DNA of 64,000 bases from Novakomyces olei (Eukaryota), in the NCBI GenBank assembly GCA_016906335.1, contig JADEYG010000003.1, positions 1 through 64,000 of the forward strand, read 5' to 3'. This document shows, piece after piece, positions 1 through 47,296 of the stretch; position 1 is the first letter of the stretch; every line of letters starts with the position of its first letter. The notes under the pieces are model-generated. The model ran no database searches. It had not been told where the DNA came from and saw nothing but the letters and a program-made list of their open reading frames with translations. The position numbers were made by a program, and so were the translations under genes.

Positions 1-114
1 CTAACTAACCCTAACTAACCCTAACTAACCCTAACTAACCCTAACTAACCCTGACTAACCCTAACTAACCCTAACTAACCCTAACTAACCCTAACTAACC
101 CTGACTAACCCTGA
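1..114. repeat. Telomeric tandem repeat, 10-bp unit CTAACTAACC (G-strand GGGTTAGTTA) with CTGACTAACC variants
   Basis: Eleven consecutive 10-mers from position 1, with variants at 51-60 and 101-110 and a partial unit at 111-114. C-rich strand is at the 5' end of the window. Confidence 0.95.
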
Positions 115-1634
115 CTCTCCCTCCCTTTCATATCCAACAATCTCAATATAATTCTCTACTCCATTCGATCATAAATAACCCTAACCCTAAATAAATATCA
201 CCGTACATTATTCCCCCATACATTATTCCCCCATACACATTATTCTCCATACATTAATCCCCCATACATTAATTCCCCATACATTATTCCCATACATTAA
301 TCCCCCATATATTATTATACCATACATTATTATACATACATTATTCCTCCATACATTATTCCACCATATATTATTATACCATACATTATAATGCCATATA
401 TTATTATACCATATGATTCTACCATATATTATTATACATACATTACTTTACAATAACTTTACAATACATTATTCTACCATATATTATTTACCATACATTA
501 TTATACATACTTTACTTTACAATACATTATTATACCATACATTATTATACGTTTACCTATACATTATTCACTTTACAATACATTATTTTACCATATATTA
601 TTATACCACACATTATTATACATACATTATTCCTCCATACATTATTCCTCCATACATTATTATACATACATTACTTTACAATAACTTTACAATACATTAT
701 TCTACCATACATTATTATACATACATTACTTTACAATAACTTTACAATACATTATTCTACCATATATTATTATACCATACATTATTATACCATACATTAT
801 TATACATACATTATTCCTATACATTAAATTACCATACATTATTATACTATACATTATTATACATACATTGCTTTACAATAAATTATTCTACTATACATTA
901 TTATAATGCCACATAAAATGCATCCTGCGCCGTCATGAGCTTTTTATAAATCTTTAAACCCATATATCTCCATAATTACTAATCCAATCTTGTAAACAAG
1001 TATATATTTACACTCCTACTGCACCCCTCTATCCAACCATACACTTTTTGTAAAAACACTTGTTCATTCGACGTTTTGTCACCTCTACACATGGACTACA
1101 CACTCTTAATTTTTCTTATTTTTCTGACGTTTTTCTTATTATACTTTATTACTATGGGGCTCTCTCTATAATATTTTTATTATATTATCAGATAGCTATA
1201 ATATGTGTAGACCATCTTGTATAATAATTATATTTTATAAATTCAGCAGCCCTACCCTCGCCGCAATATGGTTTGCCAATGTATTAGAATTAAGGCGGAA
1301 ACTATTTTTGCTCTTACGTCGTTCTTACCCCCGTTTATGCCAATTTCCTTAGCATTCCCGCGCAATTTCCCATATTATAATTTGGAATTTAGTCGGAAAA
1401 TTCTCCCTAAAAAACCCTGCCTCCACGTTTCTCCTACCATTCTTATTAGAATTACGCCATAATTCGCGGGAATGCTAAGGAAATTGGCATGACCCCCCCC
1501 TCATACATTAATTATTTTTCGAAATGGAATTATGGCGTAAAGGAAAAGCGAAAACCCTGACTAGAATTATACATAATAAGAATCACATTACATAAAAATG
1601 GAATTTCGCCATAATTCCGTCTTGAATATATCTA
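115..1634. mobile_element. Subtelomeric element copy A (distally truncated, capped by telomere)
   Basis: Near-identical to 2764-4220; ends in the shared terminus TTGAATATATCTA. Confidence 0.8.
204..905. repeat. Degenerate AT-rich tandem array (CATACATTATT-type units), almost G-free on the + strand; repeated at about 2853-3490 and 4663-4905
   Basis: Reiterated CATACATTATTATA / CATACATTATTCCTC / TTACTTTACAATA units are directly visible. Confidence 0.9.
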
Positions 1635-4220
1635 GGCTGCGTTGGTTCCAACCTCGACCTTTACGCATGCCCGACAAGCCTTGCAAGCAACTACCTTTAA
1701 ACCAAAGGCCTCCTCGATTCCCAAGTACTCCATGACTGAGTATATCTGTTCAAGTCTTTAATTACTACTAGAAACATGCTGTAATCTATTTTCGATATAA
1801 TGCGAATCTTATTATTAATAGTGTGAATTTCCTTTCCGTCGTCGCGATTTTTACCATATATTAACCTGGAATTATGCAGTAAAATCTACCCTCGAAAACC
1901 CTGTTTGACTATTTGTTATTCAATTCTTATTAGAATTACGCCGTAATTCGCGACGACGAGCAGCAAATTCACATGACCCCCCTCCCATACATTAATTAAT
2001 TTTCAAACTGGAATTACGCCGTAATTCTACGTAGAACACCCTAACAAAAAATATAGCTAATAAAAACTACGATACATATATTTCGAATTACGGCGTAATT
2101 CGCGCAGGAATATGTATAGAATTACATTACACATAAATGAAATTTCGCAATAGCTTCGTCTTGAATATATATTTTTTGAATATATTTATATTAGTCTCCA
2201 TGCTTAATAAATACTTATATTTATACCATATACATTCCTACATACATTATTCCCCCATACATTAATCCCCATACATCATTTTACCAAACATTATTCCTCC
2301 ATAACCCTAACCCCCATTACCATTCTCTATTTTATAAACTTCTTCCCCCAACATGCTATCATTCTCTTATAATAAATTACTAACCCTAACATTCATACAC
2401 TTAGAACTAAATAACCCTAATTCTTCTCACTTTAACCATAGCCCTACCTCCTAACTCCATCAACTTCCATCTGCTTCCCTCAACTCTTCCAAAATCTTTC
2501 TTTCTTCATCTCCCATCACTTTTCCACATCCCCTCACACCCCTTCAATCTATTATTATTCACATTTTCCGCCCTTTTAAAACTTTTACATCATCATTTTT
2601 ATTTGATCCTTTCTAAACTTTAACCAAATATTATAAAATACTAAATAATATTAAAACAATCTTCCTTTCAATAACTGTCCTTTATCAAACATTTTTTTGG
2701 CAACTTCTACATTACTCTATTCCCATTTTCTATTTCCCTTTACTTCCTATCTCAACTCCAACTCTCTCCCTCCCTTTCATATCCAACAATCTCAATATAA
2801 TTCTCTACTCCATTCGATCATAAATAACCCTAACCCTAAATAAATATCACCGTACATTATTCCCCCATACATTATTCCCCCATACACATTATTCTCCATA
2901 CATTAATCCCCCATACATTAATTCCCCATACATTATTCCCATACATTAATCCCCCATATATTATTATACCATACATTATTATACATACATTATTCCTCCA
3001 TACATTATTCCACCATATATTATTATACCATACATTATAATGCCATATATTATTATACCATATGATTCTACCATATATTATTATACATACATTACTTTAC
3101 AATAACTTTACAATACATTATTCTACCATATATTATTTACCATACATTATTATACATACTTTACTTTACAATACATTATTATACCATACATTATTATACA
3201 TACATTATTCACTTTACAATACATTATTTTACCATATATTATTATACCACACATTATTATACATACATTATTCCTCCATACATTATTCCTCCATACATTA
3301 TTATACATACATTACTTTACAATAACTTTACAATACATTATTCTACCATATATTATTATACCATACATTATTATACCATACATTATTATACATACATTAT
3401 TCCTATACATTAAATTACCATACATTATTATACTATACATTATTATACATACATTGCTTTACAATAAATTATTCTACTATACATTATTATAATGCCACAT
3501 AAAATGCATCCTGCGCCGTCATGAGCTTTTTATAAATCTTTAAACCCATATATCTCCATAATTACTAATCCAATCTTGTAAACAAGTATATATTTACACT
3601 CCTACTGCACCCCTCTATCCAACCATACACTTTTTGTAAAAACACTTGTTCATTCGACGTTTTGTCACCTCTACACATGGACTACACACTCTTAATTTTT
3701 CTTATTTTTCTGACGTTTTTCTTATTATACTTTATTACTATGGGGCTCTCTCTATAATATTTTTATTATATTATCAGATAGCTATAATATGTGTAGACCA
3801 TCTTGTATAATAATTATATTTTATAAATTCAGCAACCCTACCCTCGCCGCAATATGGTTTGCCAATGTTTTGGAATTAAGGCGGAAACTATTTTTGCTCT
3901 TACGTCGTTCTTACCCCCGTTTATGCCAATTTCCTTAGCATTCCCGCGCAATTTCCCATATTATAATTTGGAATTTAGTCGGAAAATTCTCCCTAAAAAA
4001 CCCTGCCTCCACGTTTCTCCTACCATTCTTATTAGAATTACGCCATAATTCGCGGGAATGCTAAGGAAATTGGCATGACCCCCCCCTCATACATTAATTA
4101 TTTTTCGAAATGGAATTATGGCGTAAAGGAAAAGCGAAAACCCTGACTAGAATTATACATAATAAGAATCGCATTACATAAAAATGGAATTTCGCCATAA
4201 TTCCGTCTTGAATATATCTA
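1635..4220. mobile_element. Subtelomeric element copy B (TLH 5' fragment plus the complete upstream region)
   Basis: 1635-2125 matches 9256-9746 and 2764-4220 matches copy A; same terminus at 4220. Confidence 0.8.
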
Positions 4221-5634
4221 GAACTAAATAACCCTAATTCTTCTCACTTTAACCATAGCCCTACCTCCTAACTCCATCAACTTCCATCTGCTTCCCTCAA
4301 CTCTTCCAAAATCTTTCTTTCTTCATCTCCCATCACTTTTCCACATCCCCTCACACCCCTTCAATCTATTATTATTCACATTTTCCGCCCTTTTAAAACT
4401 TTTACATCATCATTTTTATTTGATCCTTTCTAAACTTTAACCAAATATTATAAAATACTAAATAATATTTAAACAATCTTCCTTTCAATAACTGTCCTTT
4501 ATCAAACATTTTTTTGGCAACTTCTACATTACTCTATTCCCATTTTCTATTTCCCTTTACTTCCTATCTCAACTCCAACTCTCTCCCTCCCTTTCATATC
4601 CAACAATCTCAATATAATTCTCTACTCCATTCGATCATAAATAACCCTAACCCTAAATAAATTACACATTATTATACATACATTATTCCTCCATACATTA
4701 TTCCTCCATACATTATTATACATACATTACTTTACAATAACTTTACAATACATTATTCTACCATATATTATTATACCATACATTATTATACCATACATTA
4801 TTATACATACATTATTCCTATCATTAAATTACCATACATTATTATACTATACATTATTATACATACATTGCTTTACAATAAATTATTCTACTATACATTA
4901 TTATAATGCCACATAAAATGCATCCTGCGCCGTCATGAGCTTTTTATAAATCTTTAAACCCATATATCTCCATAATTACTAATCCAATCTTGTAAACAAA
5001 TATATATTTACACTCTTACTGCTCCCCTCTATCCAACCATACACTTTTTGTAAAAACACTTGTTCTTTCGACGTTTTGTCACCTCTACACATGGACTACA
5101 CACTCTTAATTTTTCTTATTTTTCTGACGTTTTTCTTATTATACTTCTATTACTATGTTGCCCTCTCTATAATATTTATATTATATTATCAGATAACTAT
5201 AATATGTGTAGCACATCTTGTATAATAAATATATTATATAAATACAACAACCCTACCCTCGCCGCAATATGGTTTGCCAATGTTTTGGAATTAAGGCGGA
5301 AACTATTTTTGCTCTTACGTCGATCTTACCCCCGTTTATGCCAATTTCCTTAGCATTCCCGCGCAATTTCCCATATTATAATTTGGAATTTAGTCGGAAA
5401 ATTCTCCCTAAAAAACCCTGCCTCCACGTTTCTCCTACCATTCTTATTAGAATTACGCCATAATTCGCGGGAATGCTAAGGAAATTGGCATGACCCCCCC
5501 TCATACATTAATTATTTTTCGAAATGGAATTATGGCGTAAAGGAAAAGCGAAAACCCTGACTAGAATTATACATAATAAGAATCGCATTACATAAAAATG
5601 GAATTTCGCCATAATTCCGTCTTGAATATATCTA
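4221..5634. mobile_element. Subtelomeric element copy C (truncated, internal deletion, slightly diverged)
   Basis: Starts at the equivalent of 2404, lacks part of the AT-rich array after about 4660, carries several SNPs at about 5000-5250, and has the same terminus at 5634. Confidence 0.8.
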
Positions 5635-7437
5635 GACTTCGGCCCATCTCGCCTGTCTTCTAGAGAGCTGTTTCGTCGTTGTAAATGTCTGTAAGTTGCG
5701 ATGGTCTGTGTAGACAATAATTGGTATAGCATGACCTTGCAAATACGTTCTCCAAACTTTGAAAGCCCAAACTATAGCTAACAACTCTTTATCATGTATG
5801 TCGTAGTTAGTCTCTGCTGGTGTAAGCTTTCGGCTTATAAATGCAACTGGTCGTCTGCCTTTTTCTGGCCCTTGCGTCAACACTGCTCCGAGTGCAAAAT
5901 CAGACGCATCCGTTTCGATAATACATTGTTGATCTGGGTCATAGTGTTGTAGCATCACATCGCTAACGAAACATTTTTTCAATTTAGCAAAGCTTTCCTG
6001 CTGCTCTGTCTCCCATATAAACTTTTCATTTTTCTTTAGCGTTCGTGTTATCGGCAACGCTATCTTCGCAAAATCTTTTATAAATCTCCTGTAGTAGTTG
6101 CAAAAACCAAGGAAGACTTGAACATCGTGCACAGATCTTGGTGGCTCCCATTGCAAAATAGGTTCCCTTTTATCTGCGCACATCGACACTCCATTCGTCG
6201 ATAAGTTGTAACCAAGAAATTCGACGCTTTCTTTGTGAAATGCGCATTTCTCGTCCTTAGCATAAAGATTATTCTCTCTCAATCTTCTTAATACTTCTTT
6301 CACATCGTTCACATGCGATTCCCTATCGCGTGAAAATACCAAAATGTCGTCCAGATAGATTAACACTTTGTAATCTAATAAATCTCGAAACACATCATTC
6401 ATCAAGTTTTGGAACGTGGCGGGTGCATTGGTAAGACCAAAAGGCATGACCAAATATTCGAAATGCCCGTACCTTGTTCGAAAGGCAGTCTTCCATTCAT
6501 CCCCTTCTTTTATCCTGATAAGATTGTATGCTCCTCTGAGATCGATTTTTGACATAATCTTAACTCCAGTAAGTTTGTCAATAAGGTCATCGATACGTGG
6601 GATTGGGTACTTGTTCTTGATAGTAATCGAATTCAATCCACGATAATCGACACACAATCGTAATTCTCCATTTTTCTTTGGTACAAATAGAACTGGCGCT
6701 CCTGCAGGCGACTTGGAACGACGTATAAATCCCTTAGCCAAGTTCTCTTCCAAATAATCCAATAAATACTTCTGTTCCTTTGGGTTGACACTGTAGACTG
6801 GCCCGAAAGGTACAACAGAATCCTTTGTTAGTTCGATCTCGTGATCGTAACTTCTGTGTGGAGGCAATGTTTCCACGTTCTTTTCTTCAAACACATCTTT
6901 AAAGTCAGTATACTCTGGTGGTATTGTATTTGTAACCATCTCTTCATCCGTGGTAATACTGCTCAACTGTATATTCGAAATTTCGTCTTTCACCGTAGGA
7001 GTACTTGCATTGCGAGGCTTTATAGTTCCATTAATCCAATCAATATCTGGATTGTGCTTCTGAAACCATGGTAACCCAAGGATGGCGTCGTTCTTGCCAA
7101 TATTGGTAACAAGGAATGATTCTTCAGATACAAAACCTTGTACATCGACATGTAGATCCTTCGTCTTTATGGGTACTCCACCTCGTGCAATATGCTTTCC
7201 ATTTGCAACTCTGACAAATATAGGTGTTTTCAGACGTTCGGTCTCGGCCTTAAGTGCCAAAACAGTTCTTGGATTAATAAAATTAGTGTCTGACCCACTG
7301 TCTAGTAGCACTTTAATTCTCTTGCCGTTTACAACACACGACAACTCAAACCTCCCATAAGGTTTATCGTCTGGTGGCTTTTTCTGTGCCATCACCCCTA
7401 GAGACACCACCGTCGGCTCTAGGCTTGGCCTTTTAAA
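5632..7437 (-). pseudogene. pol: Ty3/gypsy pol (protease-RT-RNase H), truncated before integrase
   Basis: LDSGS protease motif, YLDD RT motif, ETDASD/DKELLAIV/YTDHRNL RNase H motifs. The ORF stops at QARWAEV exactly at the terminus of copy C; no integrase or 3' LTR. Confidence 0.93.
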
Positions 7438-8330
7438 TTCTTCGAATCCTCTGCTCTCACATCTCTCGCAGGATATGGTGCAGGACAATACTTCGAAACA
7501 TGTCCTTCTTCATTGCAACGATAACATTTGACCTTAAAGCCAACATGCTTCGGTTTAGCGTTCCTGTTAGCACGGACGCTATCTTTCAAACTTGCTCTTG
7601 TCTCCAAAAAGTCAACTTCCATAGGTGTATAACCAGCCGAGCCCACTCCACGGTACTCCGGTATTCTCTTCACCGTTCTGGTTCTAGCCTTGCTTCGTTC
7701 AAACAAGCGAGTATCAATCTTAACGCATTCTTCAATGAGCTTCTCAAGCTCTTCTGGCGGATCGCGACGAGCCAATTCGTCTTTGATATCCTCTTTAAGT
7801 CCTTCGTAGAACTGCGCAACGAGCGCATCGTTGTTCCACGTAAGCCACGACTTAACACGCTCAAACTCTGTGGCATAATGCGACACGGATCCCTTCTGTC
7901 TCAATAAGCGGATCTGTCTTTCAGCCGTTCTGCGGACGTCCCTGTCCCCGAACATTTTCTCCAAGGTTTGGCAAAAATTGTTAAAATCGTCAAGTATGGC
8001 GCCATTGTCGCTACGGACATGTGGCTCAAACCATTTAAAAGCAACTCCCCTAAGGTAGGAGGCTGCAAACATAACACGCTGCCGATCCGTGCTGTATCGT
8101 TCCGGTTGTCCCGCGATGACCATCTGGACATGGGTCAGAAAATCCCCCGTTTGCGAACGATCGCCCGAAAAGTACGGCGGAGGAGCAAGCTTAGGCTCCT
8201 TGGTGCGCGTGTTGGACACGATTCCATTAGCGGCGCGAAGTCGCTCACTAAGGCTCTGGTTTTCCGTTTCGAGTCTCTCGAGGCGAGCCGTCGTTTGCTC
8301 AAGAAACGATTGTAGCTGCTGATAATCCAT
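7419..8330 (-). CDS. gag: Ty3/gypsy Gag
   Basis: Retrotransposon capsid motifs (LRQKGSVSHYATEF, FYEGLKEDIKD) and CX2CX4HX4C knuckle CYRCNEEGHVSKYC. Confidence 0.92.
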   Translation of the reverse strand: MDYQQLQSFLEQTTARLERLETENQSLSERLRAANGIVSNTRTKEPKLAPPPYFSGDRSQTGDFLTHVQMVIAGQPERYSTDRQRVMFAASYLRGVAFKWFEPHVRSDNGAILDDFNNFCQTLEKMFGDRDVRRTAERQIRLLRQKGSVSHYATEFERVKSWLTWNNDALVAQFYEGLKEDIKDELARRDPPEELEKLIEECVKIDTRLFERSKARTRTVKRIPEYRGVGSAGYTPMEVDFLETRASLKDSVRANRNAKPKHVGFKVKCYRCNEEGHVSKYCPAPYPARDVRAEDSKNLKGQA

Positions 8331-8372
8331 CGTAAAAAGCTCGAAGAAAACGTCACAGTCCCCGAATCGTGG

Positions 8373-8381
8373 ACGTGTAAT
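8373..8381 (-). promoter_or_regulatory. Self-priming PBS (ATTACACGT), complementary to ACGTGTAAT in the LTR (8510-8518)
   Basis: 9-nt complementarity, 2 nt from the LTR end; the partner lies about 30 nt downstream of the TATA box, as in Tf1-type elements. Confidence 0.75.
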
Positions 8382-8383
8382 AC

Positions 8384-8783
8384 TGTTATGGTTGTAGAAG
8401 GCGAAAGCCTAAAGGAGAACCCAATTGCCGGATTTCACGCCGGCTCTGGGACTATGAGAAAATTAAGAGATAGAACTGGGTTTAAAAGATTGGGTCTCCC
8501 CAAAGTTCGATTACACGTAGCGAGAAAAGTAGAAGCAGGACCTCTATTTATATCCTCGCTACGTAGAATATTCTAGAAACACTAACTACTTAAACGATTA
8601 AACAAACTAACAAGTAAAAGCAGTCAGAACAATAATAGTCAATAAATAATAAATAATAAGTAAATATTTAAATAAATATTCAATATTAAATAAAGACAAC
8701 AAACAAATAATAATATAGCGCTTCAATAGCGTCGGTGCTATCGAAGACGCAATAACAATATAGAAATAAATTAAATCGTAACA
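8384..8783 (-). mobile_element. 5' LTR (400 bp) of the Ty3/gypsy element
   Basis: TGTTA...TAACA inverted ends and a TATAAATA box (8545-8552); lies just upstream of gag and interrupts the DUF3505 ORF. Confidence 0.85.
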
Positions 8784-9354
8784 CCCACGGTGGAATGTCT
8801 CTTTGATCGACATCACTTTCTGTTGCAGCACTGGGAAGGGTTATAAGGGTCTTTTCCAAGAACTTTCCTACAACGCCCTCCGCGGCTGAATTTGAGCTTG
8901 GTTTTAAACCATCTTTCGCAGCAACACGAAAATATTTCAGAAATTGATTCTCTGTAAAACAAGTTTGTAGGGGTGAACAAACAATATGATCTTTTGATGT
9001 TCGAACAGTATGTTCTTTTGAGATATGCTGCTCAATGACCTTTCGCGATGTTGAAGCAGCATCATAGCAAAAACTGCAGTAGTAGCCTTGGCAAACCTTT
9101 AGAAATAATAACGGTTCAACCACTTCACGCAGGCTCGGCGTGCTCCAATATATATTCAAAACAGGAGCGATATTCACGTCGTTTGCATTAATTACAGAAA
9201 GTGCAATTTGAAGTTCAGTTGACTTTAGCTTATGCGCCTGACGCAAATGCCTTTCGGCTGCGTTGGTTCCAACCTCGACCTTTACGCATGCCCGACAAGC
9301 CTTGCAAGCAACTACCTTTAAACCAAAGGCCTCCTCGATTCCCAAGTACTCCAT
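8784..9354 (-). pseudogene. DUF3505 (OrsD-like) Zn-finger N-terminus of a telomere-linked RecQ helicase (TLH)-type protein, interrupted by the LTR
   Basis: CxxC...HLxxxH and GYYCSFC...HISKEH...LQTCF...YFRV pattern typical of DUF3505; transcribed toward the telomere. A further 5' fragment lies at 1635-1733. The helicase domain is not present in the window. Confidence 0.7.
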
Positions 9355-9925
9355 GACTGAGTATATCTGTTCAAGTCTTTAATTACTACTAGAAACATGC
9401 TGTAATCTATTTTCGATATAATGCGAATCTTATTATTAATAGTGTGAATTTCCTTTCCGTCGTCGCGATTTTTACCATATATTAACCTGGAATTATGCAG
9501 TAAAATCTACCCTCGAAAACCCTGTTTGACTATTTGTTATTCAATTCTTATTAGAATTACGCCGTAATTCGCGACGACGAGCAGCAAATTCACATGACCC
9601 CCCTCCCATACATTAATTAATTTTCAAACTGGAATTACGCCGTAATTCTACGTAGAACACCCTAACAAAAAATATAGCTAATAAAAACTACGATACATAT
9701 ATTTCGAATTACGGCGTAATTCGCGCAGGAATATGTGTAGAATTACGCCATAATTCGCGGGAATGCTAAGGAAATTGGCATGACCCCCCCCTCATACATT
9801 AATTATTTTTCGAAATGGAATTATGGCGTAAAGGAAAAGCGAAAACCCTGACTAGAATTATACATAATAAGAATCACATTACATAAAAATGGAATTTCGC
9901 CATAATTCCGTCTTGAATATATCTA

Positions 9926-9960
9926 GGAATTTCGCCATAATTCCGTCTTGAATATATCTA
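9926..9960. mobile_element. Copy E: 35-bp terminus-only copy (hairpin plus end)
   Basis: GGAATTTCGCCATAATTCCGTCTTGAATATATCTA, an exact tandem duplicate of the end of copy D. Confidence 0.75.
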
Positions 9961-9980
9961 GACTAACCCTAACTAACCCT
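9961..9980. repeat. Internal telomeric tract GACTAACCCTAACTAACCCT at the base of the element stack
   Basis: Two telomere units in the same orientation as the terminal telomere, directly abutting copy E. Confidence 0.85.
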
Positions 9981-10597
9981 TTACTAGTTTTTACCGTTTT
10001 CCATTAAATTATCTTCTAAATCTTATATATGTTGATTCATACGCGTTTTGTAGACTGGATTCAGTCACTAGTTATGTGTTGGCTAGTAATAGATTGACTC
10101 TGTTGGAAGATGAATTTGTTATCCTCTCATACTACTTTTGTTTATGTCGTTTTCTCCAATTTGTGAATACTTTTAACCTCATTCATATTCCTATTAATCT
10201 CTAGCACTTCTCAAAATGTTCTCTATTTTTTACAAGTGCGGATTCAATACATTAAAATGTCAAGGTTATGTGATCACTATGTACCAAAAAGCGGCAAATC
10301 CTTCACTTACCGTCAAATACAATGCACACTTAATGCTTTTACGCACTCTAATATAACTTCACCGTACAATCTCAATTCGTTAGAGCCCCAGAACCCAAAA
10401 AAATAGTATATGAAGAATCATCGTTTTCATCGTTAGTATGAAAGCGCTAGTATACGTCTACGTACAAAAATCGGACCCCTAAATACTCATACGTTATGGG
10501 CATAAAGCGAGCCTGTGGCCAAATAAGCCAAAAATTATGTCCGCCTGAATAAAACATGAATTCATTAGATATCTTTAACTATTTCACGACAGGCTTT

Positions 10598-11725
10598 TCA
10601 GGCACCCTTGCTTTGCAAAAACTTGAACGTATCCACAATACTCTTCTCCAATGTAATGTAATCGATTCTCAGCAAGTTCCTAGAACGCGAATTGTCATAG
10701 CCACTCAAGGACGCCGGCTTATCCGACTCCATTTTAGCAGGGAGCTTGTCTGAATATTCTGGAAAGTTTTTCTTTACAATCTCGGCCACCTGCTTCATAT
10801 CAAAGTCGCCGGCTATTGTGAAAAATCGCTTTCCACCGGCATCGGGAATCTCCATCGCCCGGACATGCGCAAGAGCGACGTCACGTACATCAACCCAGTA
10901 ATAAGATCCGGTAGGGGGCAGCTTTTCTTTCCATCCACCCTGCGCGAGGGAAACAAGACTGGCATTCGATGTGTTGATCGTGGCCAGTGTAAAGCCCGGC
11001 GGGCAGTTAATTACTGGGCCAAAGACCAAAGGAGGGCAAATGGTGGCAATGTCAAAGCCAGGTTTCTCCTCCGCCACAAATGACCAGGCCGCTTCCTCGG
11101 CAACCTTCTTGCTTGCACGATAGGTTTTGGCTCTATCAGCCAGACCCTCGCTGTACGTAACCGGGTTCCAGTTGCTTTCGCTGTACTCTGCCGGTGGCGC
11201 ATCAGGGTCGACCATAGACGCAAAGGAAGACGTGATAACCACACGCTTGACACTAGGCGCTTTCGTCTTGATCGCGTTCAGAATACCCTTAGTGCCATAA
11301 ACGGCAGGCTCAAGCAGCTCCTTGGGGTCTTGAAATTTGAAGTGAAACGGGCTTGCTGTGTGAAGCACTGCATCAAACGGCGGATCAGACACAACTGCCT
11401 TGTCAAAGGCACCTTCTGCCGCGATATCGGGAACAATCACATAAGAAATTTGGCCGCTCGGAAGATGCGCATAAGCAGCCAAAATGCTTTCGCCTTTTTC
11501 CGCACTGCGCACAGTAGTCACAACAGTATGCTTTTCTGCCAGTAGCGTCTTGCAACGGCAGAAGCCACGGTCAGTACTTTGGGCACGATTCATTCGTAGT
11601 TTGTATGCCTTACCTCCAAAATGTGTGCGGCAATAAAGCCAGAGCCACCTTTGCAAAGAAACTAGTCAGTTTATCCAGATTGTTATGCTGCGGAGCCTCT
11701 ACATACCTGTAACGAGAACCTTCAT
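10598..11725 (-). CDS. NADPH-dependent aldehyde/carbonyl reductase (Gre2/Ari1-like extended SDR), 2 introns
   Basis: Spliced MKVLVTG-GSGFIAAHILE Rossmann motif, HTASPF, YRASK catalytic YxxxK, VDVRDVA. Confidence 0.88.
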
Positions 11726-12391
11726 CGTTCAATTGAATGTTTGTCGGAAATGCTAAGCGCTCAAAATCGTTGCCAAGCCAGCGTTTATATATTCGTTTAT
11801 ATTATATGTATTACTTTAACAGGAAAGATTACGCGAGCAAGACGGGAGGGATAGATTGATTGCCCAGTACGTAATTACAATGTATTATATAATACTAAAC
11901 ATTTATTATCAAAGAGGCTTTCTTATATTTACTATTAAAGAGATATTTTCATTATATATATTACACAATTATATAGGATGTCACATAGAATCAGGTCTAA
12001 GGGATAACTGCCGAAATAAAAGCACTGGAAGCTTCTTGTATATCGCAACAGCCTACGCGCAGCGTATCATGTATCGGTCCAGGAAAAAGCATTGCGGTAT
12101 TGTCGTGAATAGTAAAAGCAAGAAACCCGGTAGGTTGGGCCTTTTATAGGCGGTTTGCTCCTTTCGAGCTAGGGTTAGTCAGGGTTAGTCAGGGTTATAT
12201 TAAAAGATGAACCTTATGTAGGTTATTAAGATAGATATTGGCCAAGACAAAAGCAGTAATTCATTATACAATATGTATTGCATCTATCTATGTTTATATA
12301 TATATATATATGTATGTATATGTCCCACGCAAGACTGCCAGGGCTAATCGAGCGTCTGACCCAAAGTATTTCCTGACTCGATGTTTTCTGG

Positions 12392-17024: not shown

Positions 17025-17872
17025 CGTCTGTCTAAACCCCAAAAGTCGCTGGTCGTTTCTTTATCTGGCACCGCAGGCACCATTGTCGCACACGTCCGAT
17101 ACTCGTCGAACGGACGGCTAACATTATAAGTTATTTTATTATAGATAGATAAGGGTTAGGGTCAGGATAAGAGATAACAATTCGGCCAAAGGGCCCTTTA
17201 GAACTGCGATATCATGTAGGTCTTTCGCGCTGGCAACTACGTTCCATTGCTTTTTCCATGGCTAAGACCAGCTAAGAAGAAATTGCCTATTTATTTTTGT
17301 TGAGGCGAAACAATTACGGTTGCTTTCAAAACTATCCAGAGATCCAGCAAAGTTAAGAAACAAATAATGGGGCACTGGACCTGTTAGGATTGTTCGAAGC
17401 GCATAGATAGTACTGTTAGGGTTAATTAGGGTTAGGAACATTAAACTTGATAACAGTTTTTGGCCTATTTATTGTCAAACCTATACAATACCCAATATAT
17501 TGAATCTACTGCTGGAAGAAGGCCTGGATAGCCAAGAACTTTGGTTTTTGGCAGGTAGACATTAAATTGCGCCTCAAGAATAATATGAATAGCAATAATA
17601 TGAATAGCAAAAATCGTCTTGTTTCATTAAACACGCCCCCATTAATGTGTAAGTCTATCCGACAAAGCGCACGTGGTAATATAACCTATAATACCGAGAA
17701 CTTTGGTTTGCTCAGCGCGGGTATAGCAAATCATGTGGAAGTTGGACTCGACGATCGTCATGCTCAAATCCGCCTGCCGCCCTTGTTGGCTATATCTTGA
17801 TCGTTGAGTTTTGATTGCACTGTACAGCACTATCCCATCAGTAGTCCGTCTGCACTATAAGCTGGCTGGGAG

Positions 17873-35829: not shown

Positions 35830-36474
35830 TGACAATACAGGGCAATGCACGGCCAAAAGTTTAGCAGTATCAGACAGTTTGCGTGTGTAAGAGTATAAAC
35901 GCGTACTTCAAACCATAAGTTTACAGGGCTTTTCCACCTGCCGCTTATCACCCATACGGTCGGCAAAACCTTATAACCCCCATTCTTGGCATTAACCCTA
36001 ACTAACCCTTGATCATTACGGCGTTTCCCGTGGGCTGTGGCTGCAGGGTCGACTACACTAAATAAGCGCATTCGGCAAGACAAAATAATGGCAATTAAAA
36101 TTTCATAAAAGAGTGTATCGCTATTTTTATCGGGTTAAAGCATTCTTCGACGATACACCAAGGGTGGTGGTGGTGGTGTTTGCCGCCCACGCTACAATTT
36201 TGCCTCTCCCGTGGCAGTTGGAGGGAACAAGTAATACCCGGAAAAATCCTGGCCCACGGCAAATTGTCACAGAAAATAAAAGAACAAGTAATAGGCCCTA
36301 TAGCCCCCACCCTTGTACTTTTGCCTGTGCTCGCTGATTACGATAAATAAGGACGACCCCAATCCTCCGTCTGAACCACTCACTCTTCTTTTCCACTCTC
36401 TTCTAACCTCCTAATTGCCCTTTGGCATAGTACCCGTGGCTTCAAGTCTTTTCTACAAAGCAAAGCAAAGCATT

Positions 36475-46745: not shown

Positions 46746-47296
46746 TGTAAATTGTCATATAAAACGATGGAGAATATGAACATCGAACTTTTCGTGTTTA
46801 TTAAGAGCTTACTTTAAAACAGTTATATTAAAGATTAGACGCGATTCGACGCAATTATTAAAATGTCTTGTAATTTATTGTAGCATATTTACATTAGGCG
46901 AAAATATGTTTTGATATCGCAGACGAAATAAATATTTGACTAACCCTAACTAACCCTAGATCCGTTGAATTCTAATTGAATAAGACTTCTAATTGATTTC
47001 TTGGGCTCCCTACAAGCTCTAGTTGGAATTTTCGAAAACAAATTTAGGCCTTTATTTGAGGACGAGGGCTCAGTCAATAAAAAAAAGGAGCAATCAAAAG
47101 TAAATTATAGTCTTGCATAAAATTGCGTAATCGAGAGAATTGGACAGTACTTTACTTCGATAATTATCAAATACTAGACACTCAAATTATTGCAATATCA
47201 AATCAAGTTCACATTTTATTCGTATCTCTTTCTGTTCCCTCAGCTGCCTATTAAACCTTCGGCATACGCATTATACCCTTCTTCATTAGAAAAATC

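Follow-up and report, generated by a model that had tools for sequence, protein, structure and literature searches.

The HeT-A, TART and TAHRE elements of Drosophila form polar terminal arrays in which the fixed 3' ends lie toward the centromere and the 5' ends are ragged. Their addition is to bare ends and requires no target site, and HeT-A lacks a reverse transcriptase (RT). In Saccharomyces the Y' ORF reads toward the telomere. The usual explanation for arrays of TLH and Y' units is recombination via telomere repeats; mobility of the fungal TLH and yeast Y' units has long been suspected and, to our knowledge, never shown. The Helitron consensus includes a 5' TC start, a 3' hairpin followed by CTRR, and insertion between A and T.

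As far as the available portions of the literature go, TLH proteins carry two C2H2 motifs at the N-terminus, FoTeRs often adjoin TLH regions, and a helicase-linked subtelomeric repeat of Botrytis cinerea Vv3 has been called Helitron-like. The available text on MoTeR arrays describes a head-to-tail arrangement with the 5' ends outward, truncated copies, and a non-coding MoTeR2 that shares the 3' border, together with LTR-element insertions and an inverted internal telomere nearby (10.1101/845669). The TLH-containing regions (TLHcr) of Fusarium oxysporum are described, in the part of the source available, as full or truncated and as occurring singly or in arrays (10.1101/2024.02.27.582403).

We analyzed a window of 64,000 nucleotides at a contig end of Novakomyces olei and compared it with contigs of three other public runs (X1, X2 and X3) from two studies; the boundaries and flanks given for these runs are those among the contigs listed. 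Directly behind the terminal telomere repeats of the assembled window lies a one-way array of 9.8 kb. It is best read as the product of an element family specific to chromosome ends. Of its two members, type 1 is coding and type 2 non-coding, and copies close with one of two end types, A and A'.

1–114, plus strand: terminal telomere repeats, C-rich strand, unit CTAACTAACC, variant CTGACTAACC
115–1635, plus strand: type-2 (non-coding) copy 1, outermost, telomere-capped, truncated at the point equivalent to 2764, ends ...TATATCTAG
1300–1635, 3886–4221 and 5301–5635, no strand assigned: conserved terminal module (A) with stem, palindromes and tail, DNA fold z -5.9
1636–2119, plus strand: type-1 fragment, equivalent to 9257–9740, ends ...GGAATATGTATAG
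2120–4221, plus strand: type-2 copy 2, the longest (2.1 kb); contigs of runs X1 and X3 begin at 2118
4222–5635, plus strand: type-2 copy 3, truncated at the point equivalent to 2405, minisatellite shorter
5636–8783, minus strand: Ty3/gypsy retrotransposon within the OrsD ORF, with 5' LTR, gag (7419–8408) and pol (5632–7509)
8785–9354, minus strand: type-1 ORF, first 190 codons, OrsD/DUF3505 domain and two C2H2-like zinc fingers, reads toward the chromosome end
9405–9740, plus strand: A' terminal module of the type-1 unit, with the same stems and three palindromes as the A module
9741–9926, plus strand: copy of the A end, ~187 nt, 100% identical to 1449–1635
9927–9961, plus strand: copy of the A end, 34–35 nt, innermost, third palindrome and 17-nt tail
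9962–9980, plus strand: short internal telomere tract, the site at which the array started

Repeat analysis places 11.6 units of CTAACTAACC within bases 1–116, and where these repeats meet the truncated type-2 copy the two share 2 nt (CT at 115–116). The type-1 fragment at 1636–2119 holds codons 1–33 of the OrsD ORF (minus strand), the region upstream of it, and the A' terminal module. Within type-2 copy 2 are a decayed end-like stretch (2157–2189), telomere-like CCCTAA motifs, a 15-nt minisatellite (2849–3491) and a unique part of 436 nt, in addition to the A terminal module. Copies 1 and 2 are 99.5–100% identical, and copy 3 is 97.3–97.8% identical to both in the unique part. Because identity is 97.3–100% throughout and there is no transition bias, the copies are recent. 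Type 2 contains no ORF of note, which fits the expectation for a non-autonomous member.

A first-pass annotation of this sequence had proposed a chromosome end built by repeated addition of an element in five copies, and the ends and junctions bear out such a construction, with an inner end that is precise to the nucleotide and ragged outer ends. The 17-mer CGTCTTGAATATATCTA occurs exactly at 1618–1634, 4204–4220, 5618–5634, 9909–9925 and 9944–9960, always on the plus strand, and is absent from all 100 shuffles; a copy with two mismatches is found at 2157–2173. The base following the exact 17-mer is G in 5/5 cases, and all five blocks terminate precisely at ...CGTCTTGAATATATCTAG, terminal G included. 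The annotation was correct that this G is always present; however, it had assigned the base to the fused sequence. An X3 contig matches the window through 4221 and diverges only afterwards, so the G after ...TCTA is the element's own.

Each of the five block ends is fused to a different sequence whose outer part is missing, and the proposed identities of these sequences were recovered. The join within the ORF is seen from the match of 1635–2125 to 9256–9746 (99.8%), and that within the element interior from the match of 4219–4905 to 2402–3085. Position 5635 falls within the RNase H of the Ty3/gypsy pol ORF (5632–7509, minus strand), 9926–9960 is a second exact 35-nt unit, and 9961–9980 is a telomere-type tract. 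The G at 9961 is compatible with the element end or with the variant unit CTGACTAACC, and the 35-nt unit could alternatively have originated by slippage duplication.

The ORF-bearing unit terminates in the second end type, A' (...GGAATATGTRTAG), which accounts for two further junctions. One A' end lies at 2119 (...GGAATATGTATAG), with a type-2 copy fused to it from 2120, and the other at 9740 (...GTGTAG), with the ~187-nt copy of the A end fused to it from 9741. This short copy begins at the first palindrome, and TAG is its overlap with the A' end. The proposed count of five therefore holds for the exact ends but not for the copies: blocks 1635–4220 and 5635–9925 are composite, each with an A' end inside, which gives at least seven junctions in the window. 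All seven ends, five exact A and two A', share a single orientation, and the flank is different at each. The acceptors are arbitrary broken ends: an ORF, element interior, Ty3 RNase H and a short (20-nt) telomere tract; given that the last two are among them, any end is accepted.

The seven junctions with a known parent overlap the terminal TAG by 1, 3, 2, 1, 0–1, 3 and 2 nt, that is, by 1–3 nt at six or all seven of them. By our arithmetic, which assumes a one-in-four match, the chance of this is ~6e-5 for seven of seven and ~2e-4 for six. As the annotation had stated, homology at the junctions is minimal and no target duplication is seen. There is no poly(A) at any window junction, and a telomere tract occurs at one of the seven (9961–9980), the other junctions being direct. 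Very short copies are frequent, with lengths of 34, ~93 and ~187 nt among the seven A-type copies, and their starts all lie no more than 1 nt from a palindrome edge, consistent with synthesis from the fixed end that aborts or switches template.

The tabulation of junction flanks that the annotation had suggested extends these observations. The A and A' ends recur on at least four further flanks among the contigs listed from other runs. In X3 the A end is followed by TAAGCCAG... and the A' end by ATAGGCAG..., and in X2 the A' end is followed by 9832–9834 and the A end, after a few additional letters, by 2507. At least 11 different flank contexts are thus found on the same two end nucleotides, with overlaps of 0–3 nt. 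Listed contigs start or stop at 2118, 4221, 5634, 8783/4, 9255 and 9740–9742, which are the proposed boundaries, and depth is present in 30 of 30 bins for both X1 and X2. Contig loose ends at 8783/8784 and 5634 represent an uninterrupted type-1 ORF and intact Ty3 copies, and the ~3.8 kb that would complete the type-1 unit, which might include an RT, is located in a contig of run X1.

Telomere repeats have healed truncated copies at four places, 114/115 in the window and 9255/6, 4711 and 2455 in run X2. The telomere joint at 9255/6 coincides to the nucleotide with the point at which an A end is attached in the window. The element had been proposed to be telomerase-independent, a view that is not sustained: with a telomere tract below the array, a telomere cap above it, and healed copies, the element coexists with telomerase.

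The terminal ~300 nt constitute a module of stem and palindromes common to both end types. The A module contains a 28-bp long-range stem (1335–1362 with 1465–1492), three 17-nt palindromes (at 1449, 1527 and 1601), and an unpaired 9-nt tail with CTAG at its end. Alignment of the A module with the A' module spans 336 nt at ~70% identity and requires no indels between types. In this single comparison of two lineages, 13 of 61 predicted pairs are kept by two-sided changes, compared with 0–1 pairs when the partners are slid as a control. Predicted folding is about equal for both strands, and the structure therefore names neither the strand nor the nucleic acid. No known RNA family or ribozyme was found at the end (Rfam, E<=1, positions 1–12,300). 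The palindromes could also serve as sites at which a protein binds duplex DNA.

The type-1 ORF is cut by the Ty3 element after codon 190. The Ty3 pol encodes protease, RT and RNase H and is itself cut off in RNase H; the integrase and 3' LTR are lost. For the proposed TLH designation, the visible part of the ORF offers only an OrsD/DUF3505 N-terminus with two C2H2-like fingers; TLH identity is unproven, and the RecQ-type helicase that follows the zinc-finger region in Y'/TLH genes is not visible in the window. A helicase (DEAD plus Helicase_C) is present in one of ten scanned relatives of the type-1 ORF, a distant relative that is an OrsD-helicase fusion. The annotation had recommended a search for tyrosine-recombinase, HUH and RT domains. 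HUH/Rep, tyrosine-recombinase and transposase families gave no match, even at E<=5, in either the 190 visible amino acids or five long distant relatives; RT families likewise gave none in these proteins, and the predicted structure of the type-1 N-terminus matched no nuclease fold. The RT in the array is, as annotated, part of the nested Ty3; no other was found in the element parts present in the array or among the window's 15 ORFs of at least 250 amino acids.

We favor, tentatively and with confidence just short of even, a model in which copies of an end-specific element family are primed onto deprotected ends from a template with a fixed 3' terminus, most likely RNA, by an RT from elsewhere. 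The trigger would be loss of the cap, either by a break or by wear of the telomere to 0–40 nt. The 3' end of the G-rich strand would anneal by 1–3 nt to the last bases of the template (...TAG-3'), which would have the polarity of the window's plus strand, and the annealed chromosomal end would be extended outward. Synthesis would often halt early or jump onto the 3' end of another template; such early stops and template jumps would leave copies in head-to-tail order, all fixed at the inner end and ragged at the outer. The new end would be capped by telomerase afterwards. We infer that the template is most likely RNA, recognized via the structured ~300-nt 3' module, and that the copying RT is probably encoded outside the element, either by an autonomous partner sharing the end, much as MoTeR1 serves MoTeR2, or by the Ty3 family. 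Against an RNA template, the sole element ORF is antisense to it, no RT is found besides the nested Ty3, and the end has no poly(A), ribozyme or known RNA family.

It is somewhat unlikely that the copies are instead added as DNA. In such a route a cut or nick at CTAG, guided by the palindromes, would free a linear or single-stranded DNA copy, maybe a terminal fragment with its telomere, to be added to an uncapped end through microhomology-mediated end joining or replication onto that end. This route includes the DNA-based strand transfer proposed in the first-pass annotation, taken as the work of the element's own protein, as well as Helitron- or IS200/IS605-like one-ended rolling-circle schemes. 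The ends are indeed nucleotide-precise with a hairpin 16–17 nt inside, the plus strand resembles a Helitron 3' end (palindrome at 1601–1617, then ...CTAG at 1632–1635), and the ORF is directed outward from the fixed end, an arrangement expected of a one-ended element whose reading strand is the minus strand. Folded as DNA, the stems do just as well, the visible element parts hold no RT, and the X2 telomere repeats begin exactly at 9255/6, as if an outer copy had been cut off; a nuclease cut at the element boundary would also explain this joint. However, the protein searches and the N-terminal structure model described above gave no HUH/Rep, tyrosine-recombinase, transposase or nuclease-fold match. 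The minus strand begins with CTAG rather than TC, and CTAG is followed by G, A, A, G and A in the window and by T in X3, whereas the Helitron A|T target needs T. Joining of whole fragments predicts no excess of 34–190-nt copies. Transesterification does not need systematic overlaps; those of 1–3 nt with TAG argue for annealing and priming or end joining rather than a protein-mediated transesterification, and strand transfer is not upheld.

The array might also require no dedicated mobility: homologous recombination and break-induced replication (BIR) between chromosome ends would have shuffled a subtelomere of Y'/TLH type, and a few chance junctions would then have been amplified. Blocks within the array are 99.8–100% identical (1635–2119 to 9256–9740; 9741–9926 to 1449–1635), which indicates that ready-made pieces were copied. 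In the portions of the reports available, Fusarium oxysporum TLH-containing regions are full or truncated, single or arrayed (10.1101/2024.02.27.582403), and MoTeR arrays are demonstrably rearranged by BIR (10.1101/845669). We nevertheless consider this explanation quite improbable, as homologous exchange makes no new flanks, and here at least 11 flank contexts, with 0–3 nt overlap, meet two end nucleotides. Telomere repeats are available as possible homology at only one of the seven window junctions, and the acceptors include a Ty3 RNase H. An assembly artefact, with repeats mischained at the chromosome end, is highly improbable even in so repetitive a region: the contigs of three other runs break at the proposed boundaries and carry the same ends on other flanks, X1 and X2 each have depth in 30/30 bins, and the G rule, TAG overlap and palindrome edges are ordered and coherent.

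Exact-nucleotide joining to unrelated broken ends, Ty3 RNase H included, is the signature of active end addition. The finding of an RT partner would define a new telomeric retroelement family with an OrsD/TLH-type passenger and would bear on the co-occurrence of FoTeRs and TLH; if no such partner is found, the mechanism is new. A further reading, which we regard as unlikely, is that subtelomeric TLH/Y'-like zinc-finger/helicase units are active mobile elements, rebuilding uncapped ends by copying from a defined, structured terminus without an RT or transposase of known class and parasitised by a non-coding derivative. If true, it would constitute a third route of end extension beside telomerase and telomeric retrotransposons and would account for the chromosome-end location of TLH genes across fungi. 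The fixed end, TAG overlap rule and palindromes offer experimental handles on the rescue of uncapped ends in a telomerase-positive fungus.

Among known systems, Helitrons are dispersed insertions, unlike the terminal polar arrays described here, which have no TC start, A|T target or Rep match and carry their ORF on the strand opposite the CTAG end. Endonuclease-deficient Penelope-like elements (Athena/Coprina) are marked by a Penelope-type RT and hammerhead ribozyme motifs; here no ribozyme (Rfam, E<=1, 1–12,300) and, in the visible element parts, no RT was found, though the ~3.8 kb in the X1 contig might hold one. The Y' and TLHcr units resemble the array as subtelomeric units that adjoin terminal repeats, are arrayed, full or truncated, and have an ORF directed toward the telomere. 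However, those units have telomere repeats on both sides and their spread is thought to be recombinational, whereas here such repeats occur only at 9961–9980 and in the terminal tract, and copies are joined directly to broken ends with 1–3 nt overlap.

In its single orientation, head-to-tail arrangement, fixed inner ends and truncated outer ends the array matches telomeric non-LTR retrotransposons (HeT-A/TART, MoTeR/FoTeR, SART/TRAS). In those elements every inner junction carries poly(A) or telomere repeats, which is so at only one of the seven window junctions. The polarity of the array is, as first annotated, that of HeT-A and MoTeR arrays. HeT-A, TART and TAHRE are further alike in bare-end addition and in having an RT-less member. 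They differ in their poly(A) at each junction, sense gag and telomerase-less host, whereas our array has no poly(A) and is both capped and underlain by telomerase-type repeats. In MoTeR and FoTeR the RT is encoded in the same sense as the fixed 3' end, and their copies are split by at least half a telomere unit; here the element parts present show no RT, the sole ORF is an antisense OrsD zinc-finger gene, and 6/7 window junctions are without a telomere repeat. In other respects the available descriptions of MoTeR1/MoTeR2 of Magnaporthe oryzae and FoTeR of Fusarium oxysporum parallel the array: copies lie head to tail, the inner 3' border is fixed while 5' truncations face outward, a member without coding capacity shares its border with a coding one, LTR retrotransposons insert, inverted internal telomere tracts occur in the vicinity, and truncations are healed by telomerase.

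The sequence from 115 to 9960 is an array of related blocks, in a single orientation throughout. The first-pass annotation had described five copies that share one inner, centromere-side end, and this end is confirmed: a 17-mer is exact at five sites, ending at 1634, 4220, 5634, 9925 and 9960 (0 in 100 shuffles). The five flanks claimed for it were also borne out: one falls inside an OrsD ORF, at the equivalent of 9256, and another inside the element itself, at the equivalent of 2404; a third is the RNase H region of a Ty3/gypsy pol ORF, the fourth the final palindrome of the element, and the last a 20-nt telomere tract. The base following the 17-mer is G at all five sites. Because a contig from another public sequencing run (X3) agrees with the window up to 4221 and diverges only beyond it, we take the true end to be ...GAATATATCTAG.

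Self-comparison and alignment of the window revealed two related unit types, and the blocks 1635-4220 and 5635-9925, previously taken as single copies, are both composites. Type-2 units are non-coding. They hold CCCTAA motifs resembling telomere repeats, a minisatellite with a 15-nt unit, 436 nt of unique sequence, and a terminal module, A, whose inner end is ...TATATCTAG. Type-1 units bear an ORF, and their terminal module, A', ends in ...ATGTRTAG. The two modules align over 336 nt at ~70% identity with zero indels between types. Five junctions of the window are at A ends and two at A' ends, making seven.

Units of the array and adjoining features
115-1635, type-2 copy, non-coding
1636-2119, type-1 fragment, ending ...GTATAG at 2119
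2120-4221, type-2 copy, non-coding
4222-5635, type-2 copy, non-coding
8784-9740, type-1 unit, ending ...GGAATATGTGTAG at 9740
9354, minus strand, start of the type-1 ORF, reading toward the telomere, 190 residues visible
9741-9926, type-2 stub (~187 nt)
9927-9961, type-2 stub (34 nt)
9961-9980, short internal telomere tract, C-strand, the array's starting point
10598-11665, minus strand, NAD-dependent epimerase gene, within the piece 9961-12197

The type-1 ORF contains a Ty3/gypsy element with gag, protease, RT and RNase H, which was later cut in RNase H, the next copy being added at the cut. Copies are 97.3-100% identical and their substitutions lack a transition bias; the additions are therefore recent and not affected by RIP. 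RIP was rejected as the source of copy divergence, since C>T/G>A changes are not favored among the substitutions. The minisatellite (ACCATACATTATTAT-like; 200-905, 2849-3491 and 4666-4905) varies in length among otherwise identical copies, with 8- and 55-nt indels separating copies 1 and 2 and a large deletion in copy 3.

An end-like motif, TAATATGTGTAG, with one mismatch to the A' end, is found at 1199-1210, 3785-3796 and 5200-5211, which is 425 nt before the A end in all three type-2 copies. At the matching place (loose end 3801) a contig from a second run, X1, carries a fuller A'-like hairpin and end. Given both observations, type 2 may have arisen as a composite of two older additions, fossilized and now copied as a single unit. 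The longest type-2 copy also includes a decayed A-end copy at 2157-2189 (CGTCTTGAATATATATT, then TTGAATATATTTATATTAG). This decayed end is inherited rather than a separate recent addition, because X1 and X3 contigs carry it contiguously from 2118.

Four public runs were compared over 95-10,400 of the window; all are contig sets, which show presence and joins rather than absence. Among the matches listed, contig starts and stops coincide exactly with the proposed boundaries, and contigs from X3 and a third run, X2, add at least four new flanks.

Contig boundaries and new flanks in other runs
2118, boundary in X1 and X3
4221, boundary in X3
5634, boundary in X1, X2 and X3
8783/4, boundary in X1, X2 and X3
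9255, boundary in X2
9740-9742, boundary in X1 and X3
X3, A end followed by TAAGCCAG... and a short TTAGGG run
X3, A' end followed by ATAGGCAG...
X2, A' end joined to 9832-9834, giving a ~93-nt A stub
X2, A end, a few letters, then 2507

The loose ends at 5634 and 8783 reveal intact Ty3 copies and an uninterrupted type-1 ORF elsewhere, the latter extending at least 10 codons beyond the Ty3 site. An assembly artefact could in principle affect a single window junction; the general pattern is independent of the window assembly. The truncated copies in X2 carry telomere repeats at 9255/6, 4711 and 2455. Depth at the X2 joints 9255/6, 4711 and 2507 is 803-1313, near the 1189 of the bin for the unique flank, which would suit a single genomic place for each, run depth being a poor measure that gives no copy number. 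At some X2 telomere joints depth is very low, about 10-48 where the unique flank has ~1189; the joint at 2455 is at only ~11. These low-depth joints hint at subclonal, ongoing breakage and healing of ends. Metagenome contigs gave 0 matches to the 23-nt end pattern or to a 30-nt conserved pattern.

The overlap between the terminal TAG and the acceptor was measured at the seven junctions whose acceptor parent could be traced in the window itself or in loose ends.

Overlap with the terminal TAG
1635, 1 nt
4221, 3 nt
5635, 2 nt
9926, 1 nt
9961, 0-1 nt
9740, 3 nt
X2 joint of the A' end to 9832-9834, 2 nt

Six or seven of the 7 junctions overlap, given the 0-1 nt at 9961; taking one in four per junction, the chance probability is ~6e-5 for 7/7 and ~2e-4 for six, a result that favors priming or joining through annealing. 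Three short A stubs start at 9927, 9741 and 9834, each at most one base from the edge of one of the module's three 17-nt palindromes (9927-9943, 9740-9756 and 9818-9834, respectively). The 17-nt palindrome occurs 34 times with both strands counted, compared with 0.36 expected, and is confined to terminal modules.

With A and A' as input, RNAalifold predicts a long-range stem of 28 bp, a second stem that joins the second and third palindromes, and an unpaired stretch comprising the last 9 nt. In this one comparison of two lineages, 13 of 61 predicted pairs are kept through two-sided changes and 8 are broken; slid partners give 0-1. The A module folds far above shuffles as DNA (z -5.9), and both of its strands also fold as RNA (z -3.2 to -6.1), with strand preference absent. 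A search of Rfam at E<=1 identified no ribozyme at the terminus, only sub-threshold miRNA-like hairpin matches at the long stem. There is a single two-lineage comparison, and sites bound by a dimer in duplex DNA would account for the palindromes equally well. What emerges is thus a cis-element under constraint at the fixed end, of either nucleic acid and either strand.

Positions 1-116 hold 11.6 units of CTAACTAACC, a few of them CTGACTAACC variants; the C-rich strand here is the expectation for a left chromosome end. The 10-nt unit, TTAGTTAGGG on the G strand, is not plain TTAGGG, and plain CCCTAA stretches are also present at X2 joints in the contig pieces among the matches listed. The variant CTGACTAACC is the string printed in Yarrowia papers. 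In contrast to this Yarrowia-like variant, the genes of the window look intron-split in the fashion of filamentous ascomycetes. The 2.2-kb piece 9961-12197 is flanked by outward-facing telomere tracts (C-strand, 9961-9980; G-strand, 12169-12197). By its appearance it is either a small fragment with telomeres at both ends or a scar left when a telomere fusion broke and was healed. A similar inverted internal telomere lies beside a MoTeR array, as a passage of one study describes (10.1101/845669). Deeper in the subtelomere there are short telomere-like tracts in both orientations, at 17416-17436 (-), 35996-36009 (+) and 46944-46958 (+). The genes across 12392-37793 (a P450, three FAD monooxygenase / phenol hydroxylase pieces, a Zn-cluster transcription factor and an old-yellow-enzyme reductase) are a set typical of fungal secondary or aromatic metabolism.

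The visible 190 residues of the type-1 ORF match Pfam OrsD/DUF3505 (E 1e-7). A HMMER search of 1.84 billion representatives returned 22 distant relatives (best E 3.7e-9, 33% identity), and a word-indexed search found no longer protein matching the fragment. As only these 22 matched, the complete protein is absent from the searched collections. Alignment with 13 of the 22 shows C17, H36, H41, C93, C96, H110 and H115 to be invariant, and these residues mark two C2H2-like fingers. One of the ten scanned relatives (1454 aa) adds DEAD and Helicase_C, and nine have OrsD only. Rep, RT and integrase families were not found in five long relatives even at E<=5, and tblastn of 23 proteins located no helicase remnant in the window. 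The TLH label given earlier is thus plausible but unproven; the helicase part is not visible in the window.

An AlphaFold model of the visible part (pLDDT 79.6) has no Foldseek match in the PDB at E<=0.001, and a wide VIA search gave no nuclease, recombinase or polymerase fold among six chains with Z>=2; both searches cover the N-terminal model, and such a domain could lie further along the protein. VIA gave one middling match, to the ORC-interaction domain of Sir1 (Z 6.2, rmsd 4.2, 104 of 117 aligned; next Z 3.8). This modelled similarity is a weak lead toward a possible chromatin- or origin-binding role for the OrsD N-terminus, rather than catalysis. A 4.9-kb X1 contig extends the type-1 unit ~3.8 kb past 8783, and this remainder could encode a helicase, an RT, or both.

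The polarity, the exact inner nucleotide, the arbitrary acceptors, the 1-3 nt overlap, the many very short copies and the head-to-tail chains of terminal fragments suggest priming on a fixed template end with frequent stops or jumps. The chromosome's 3' end would serve as primer on the 3' terminus of a + sense template, with the polymerase frequently halting or jumping to another template's 3' end. The reverse transcriptases of non-LTR elements are known for such stopping and jumping. We favor an RNA template with an RT supplied in trans, tentatively and at a little under an even chance, and consider primed copying from a fixed template end more secure than the RNA part. The main rival is a DNA route by site-specific cutting at CTAG, a class that takes in the DNA-based strand transfer suggested in the first-pass annotation. 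No RT of the element's own is seen in its visible parts, the end is a hairpin plus CTAG, and the X2 telomere begins precisely at the boundary nucleotide 9255/6, all of which agree with a cut. However, that telomere is equally explained by addition after a healed telomere had worn to nothing, which fits because other junctions still carry some telomere-like sequence, either 20 nt or a few letters.

Recombination alone could not create the many flanks. Rated lower, though not rejected, is the idea that the mRNA of the type-1 ORF starts at the fixed end and cDNA run-off sets that end, as it puts six upstream ATGs into a 386-nt leader and requires an internal promoter. The proposal that the element is telomerase-independent does not agree with an array that lies on a telomere tract, is telomere-capped, and has been healed at several truncation points. 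The element therefore acts alongside telomerase, not instead of it.

In the literature covered on telomere-linked helicases and DUF3505, OrsD/TLH-type units fused at one fixed nucleotide to non-telomeric broken ends are not described. TLH-containing regions are there reported in complete and in truncated form and in arrays, invariably flanked on either side by telomere repeats, and are interpreted as rearrangements (10.1101/2024.02.27.582403, in part). Partial accounts also place FoTeR retrotransposons together with TLH-containing regions (PMC12857005) and, in Botrytis, a 'Helitron-like' helicase repeat next to TLH genes (10.1101/2022.03.07.483234). One of the readings considered here would, if true, make the element new in kind, beyond telomere-specific terminal-addition elements. 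The MoTeR arrays of Magnaporthe have the same anatomy as the array in the window; they are described as including a partner that is non-coding, LTR elements nested in the array, and internal telomere tracts in inverted orientation (10.1101/845669). We file the array with the telomere-specific terminal-addition elements, as a variant.
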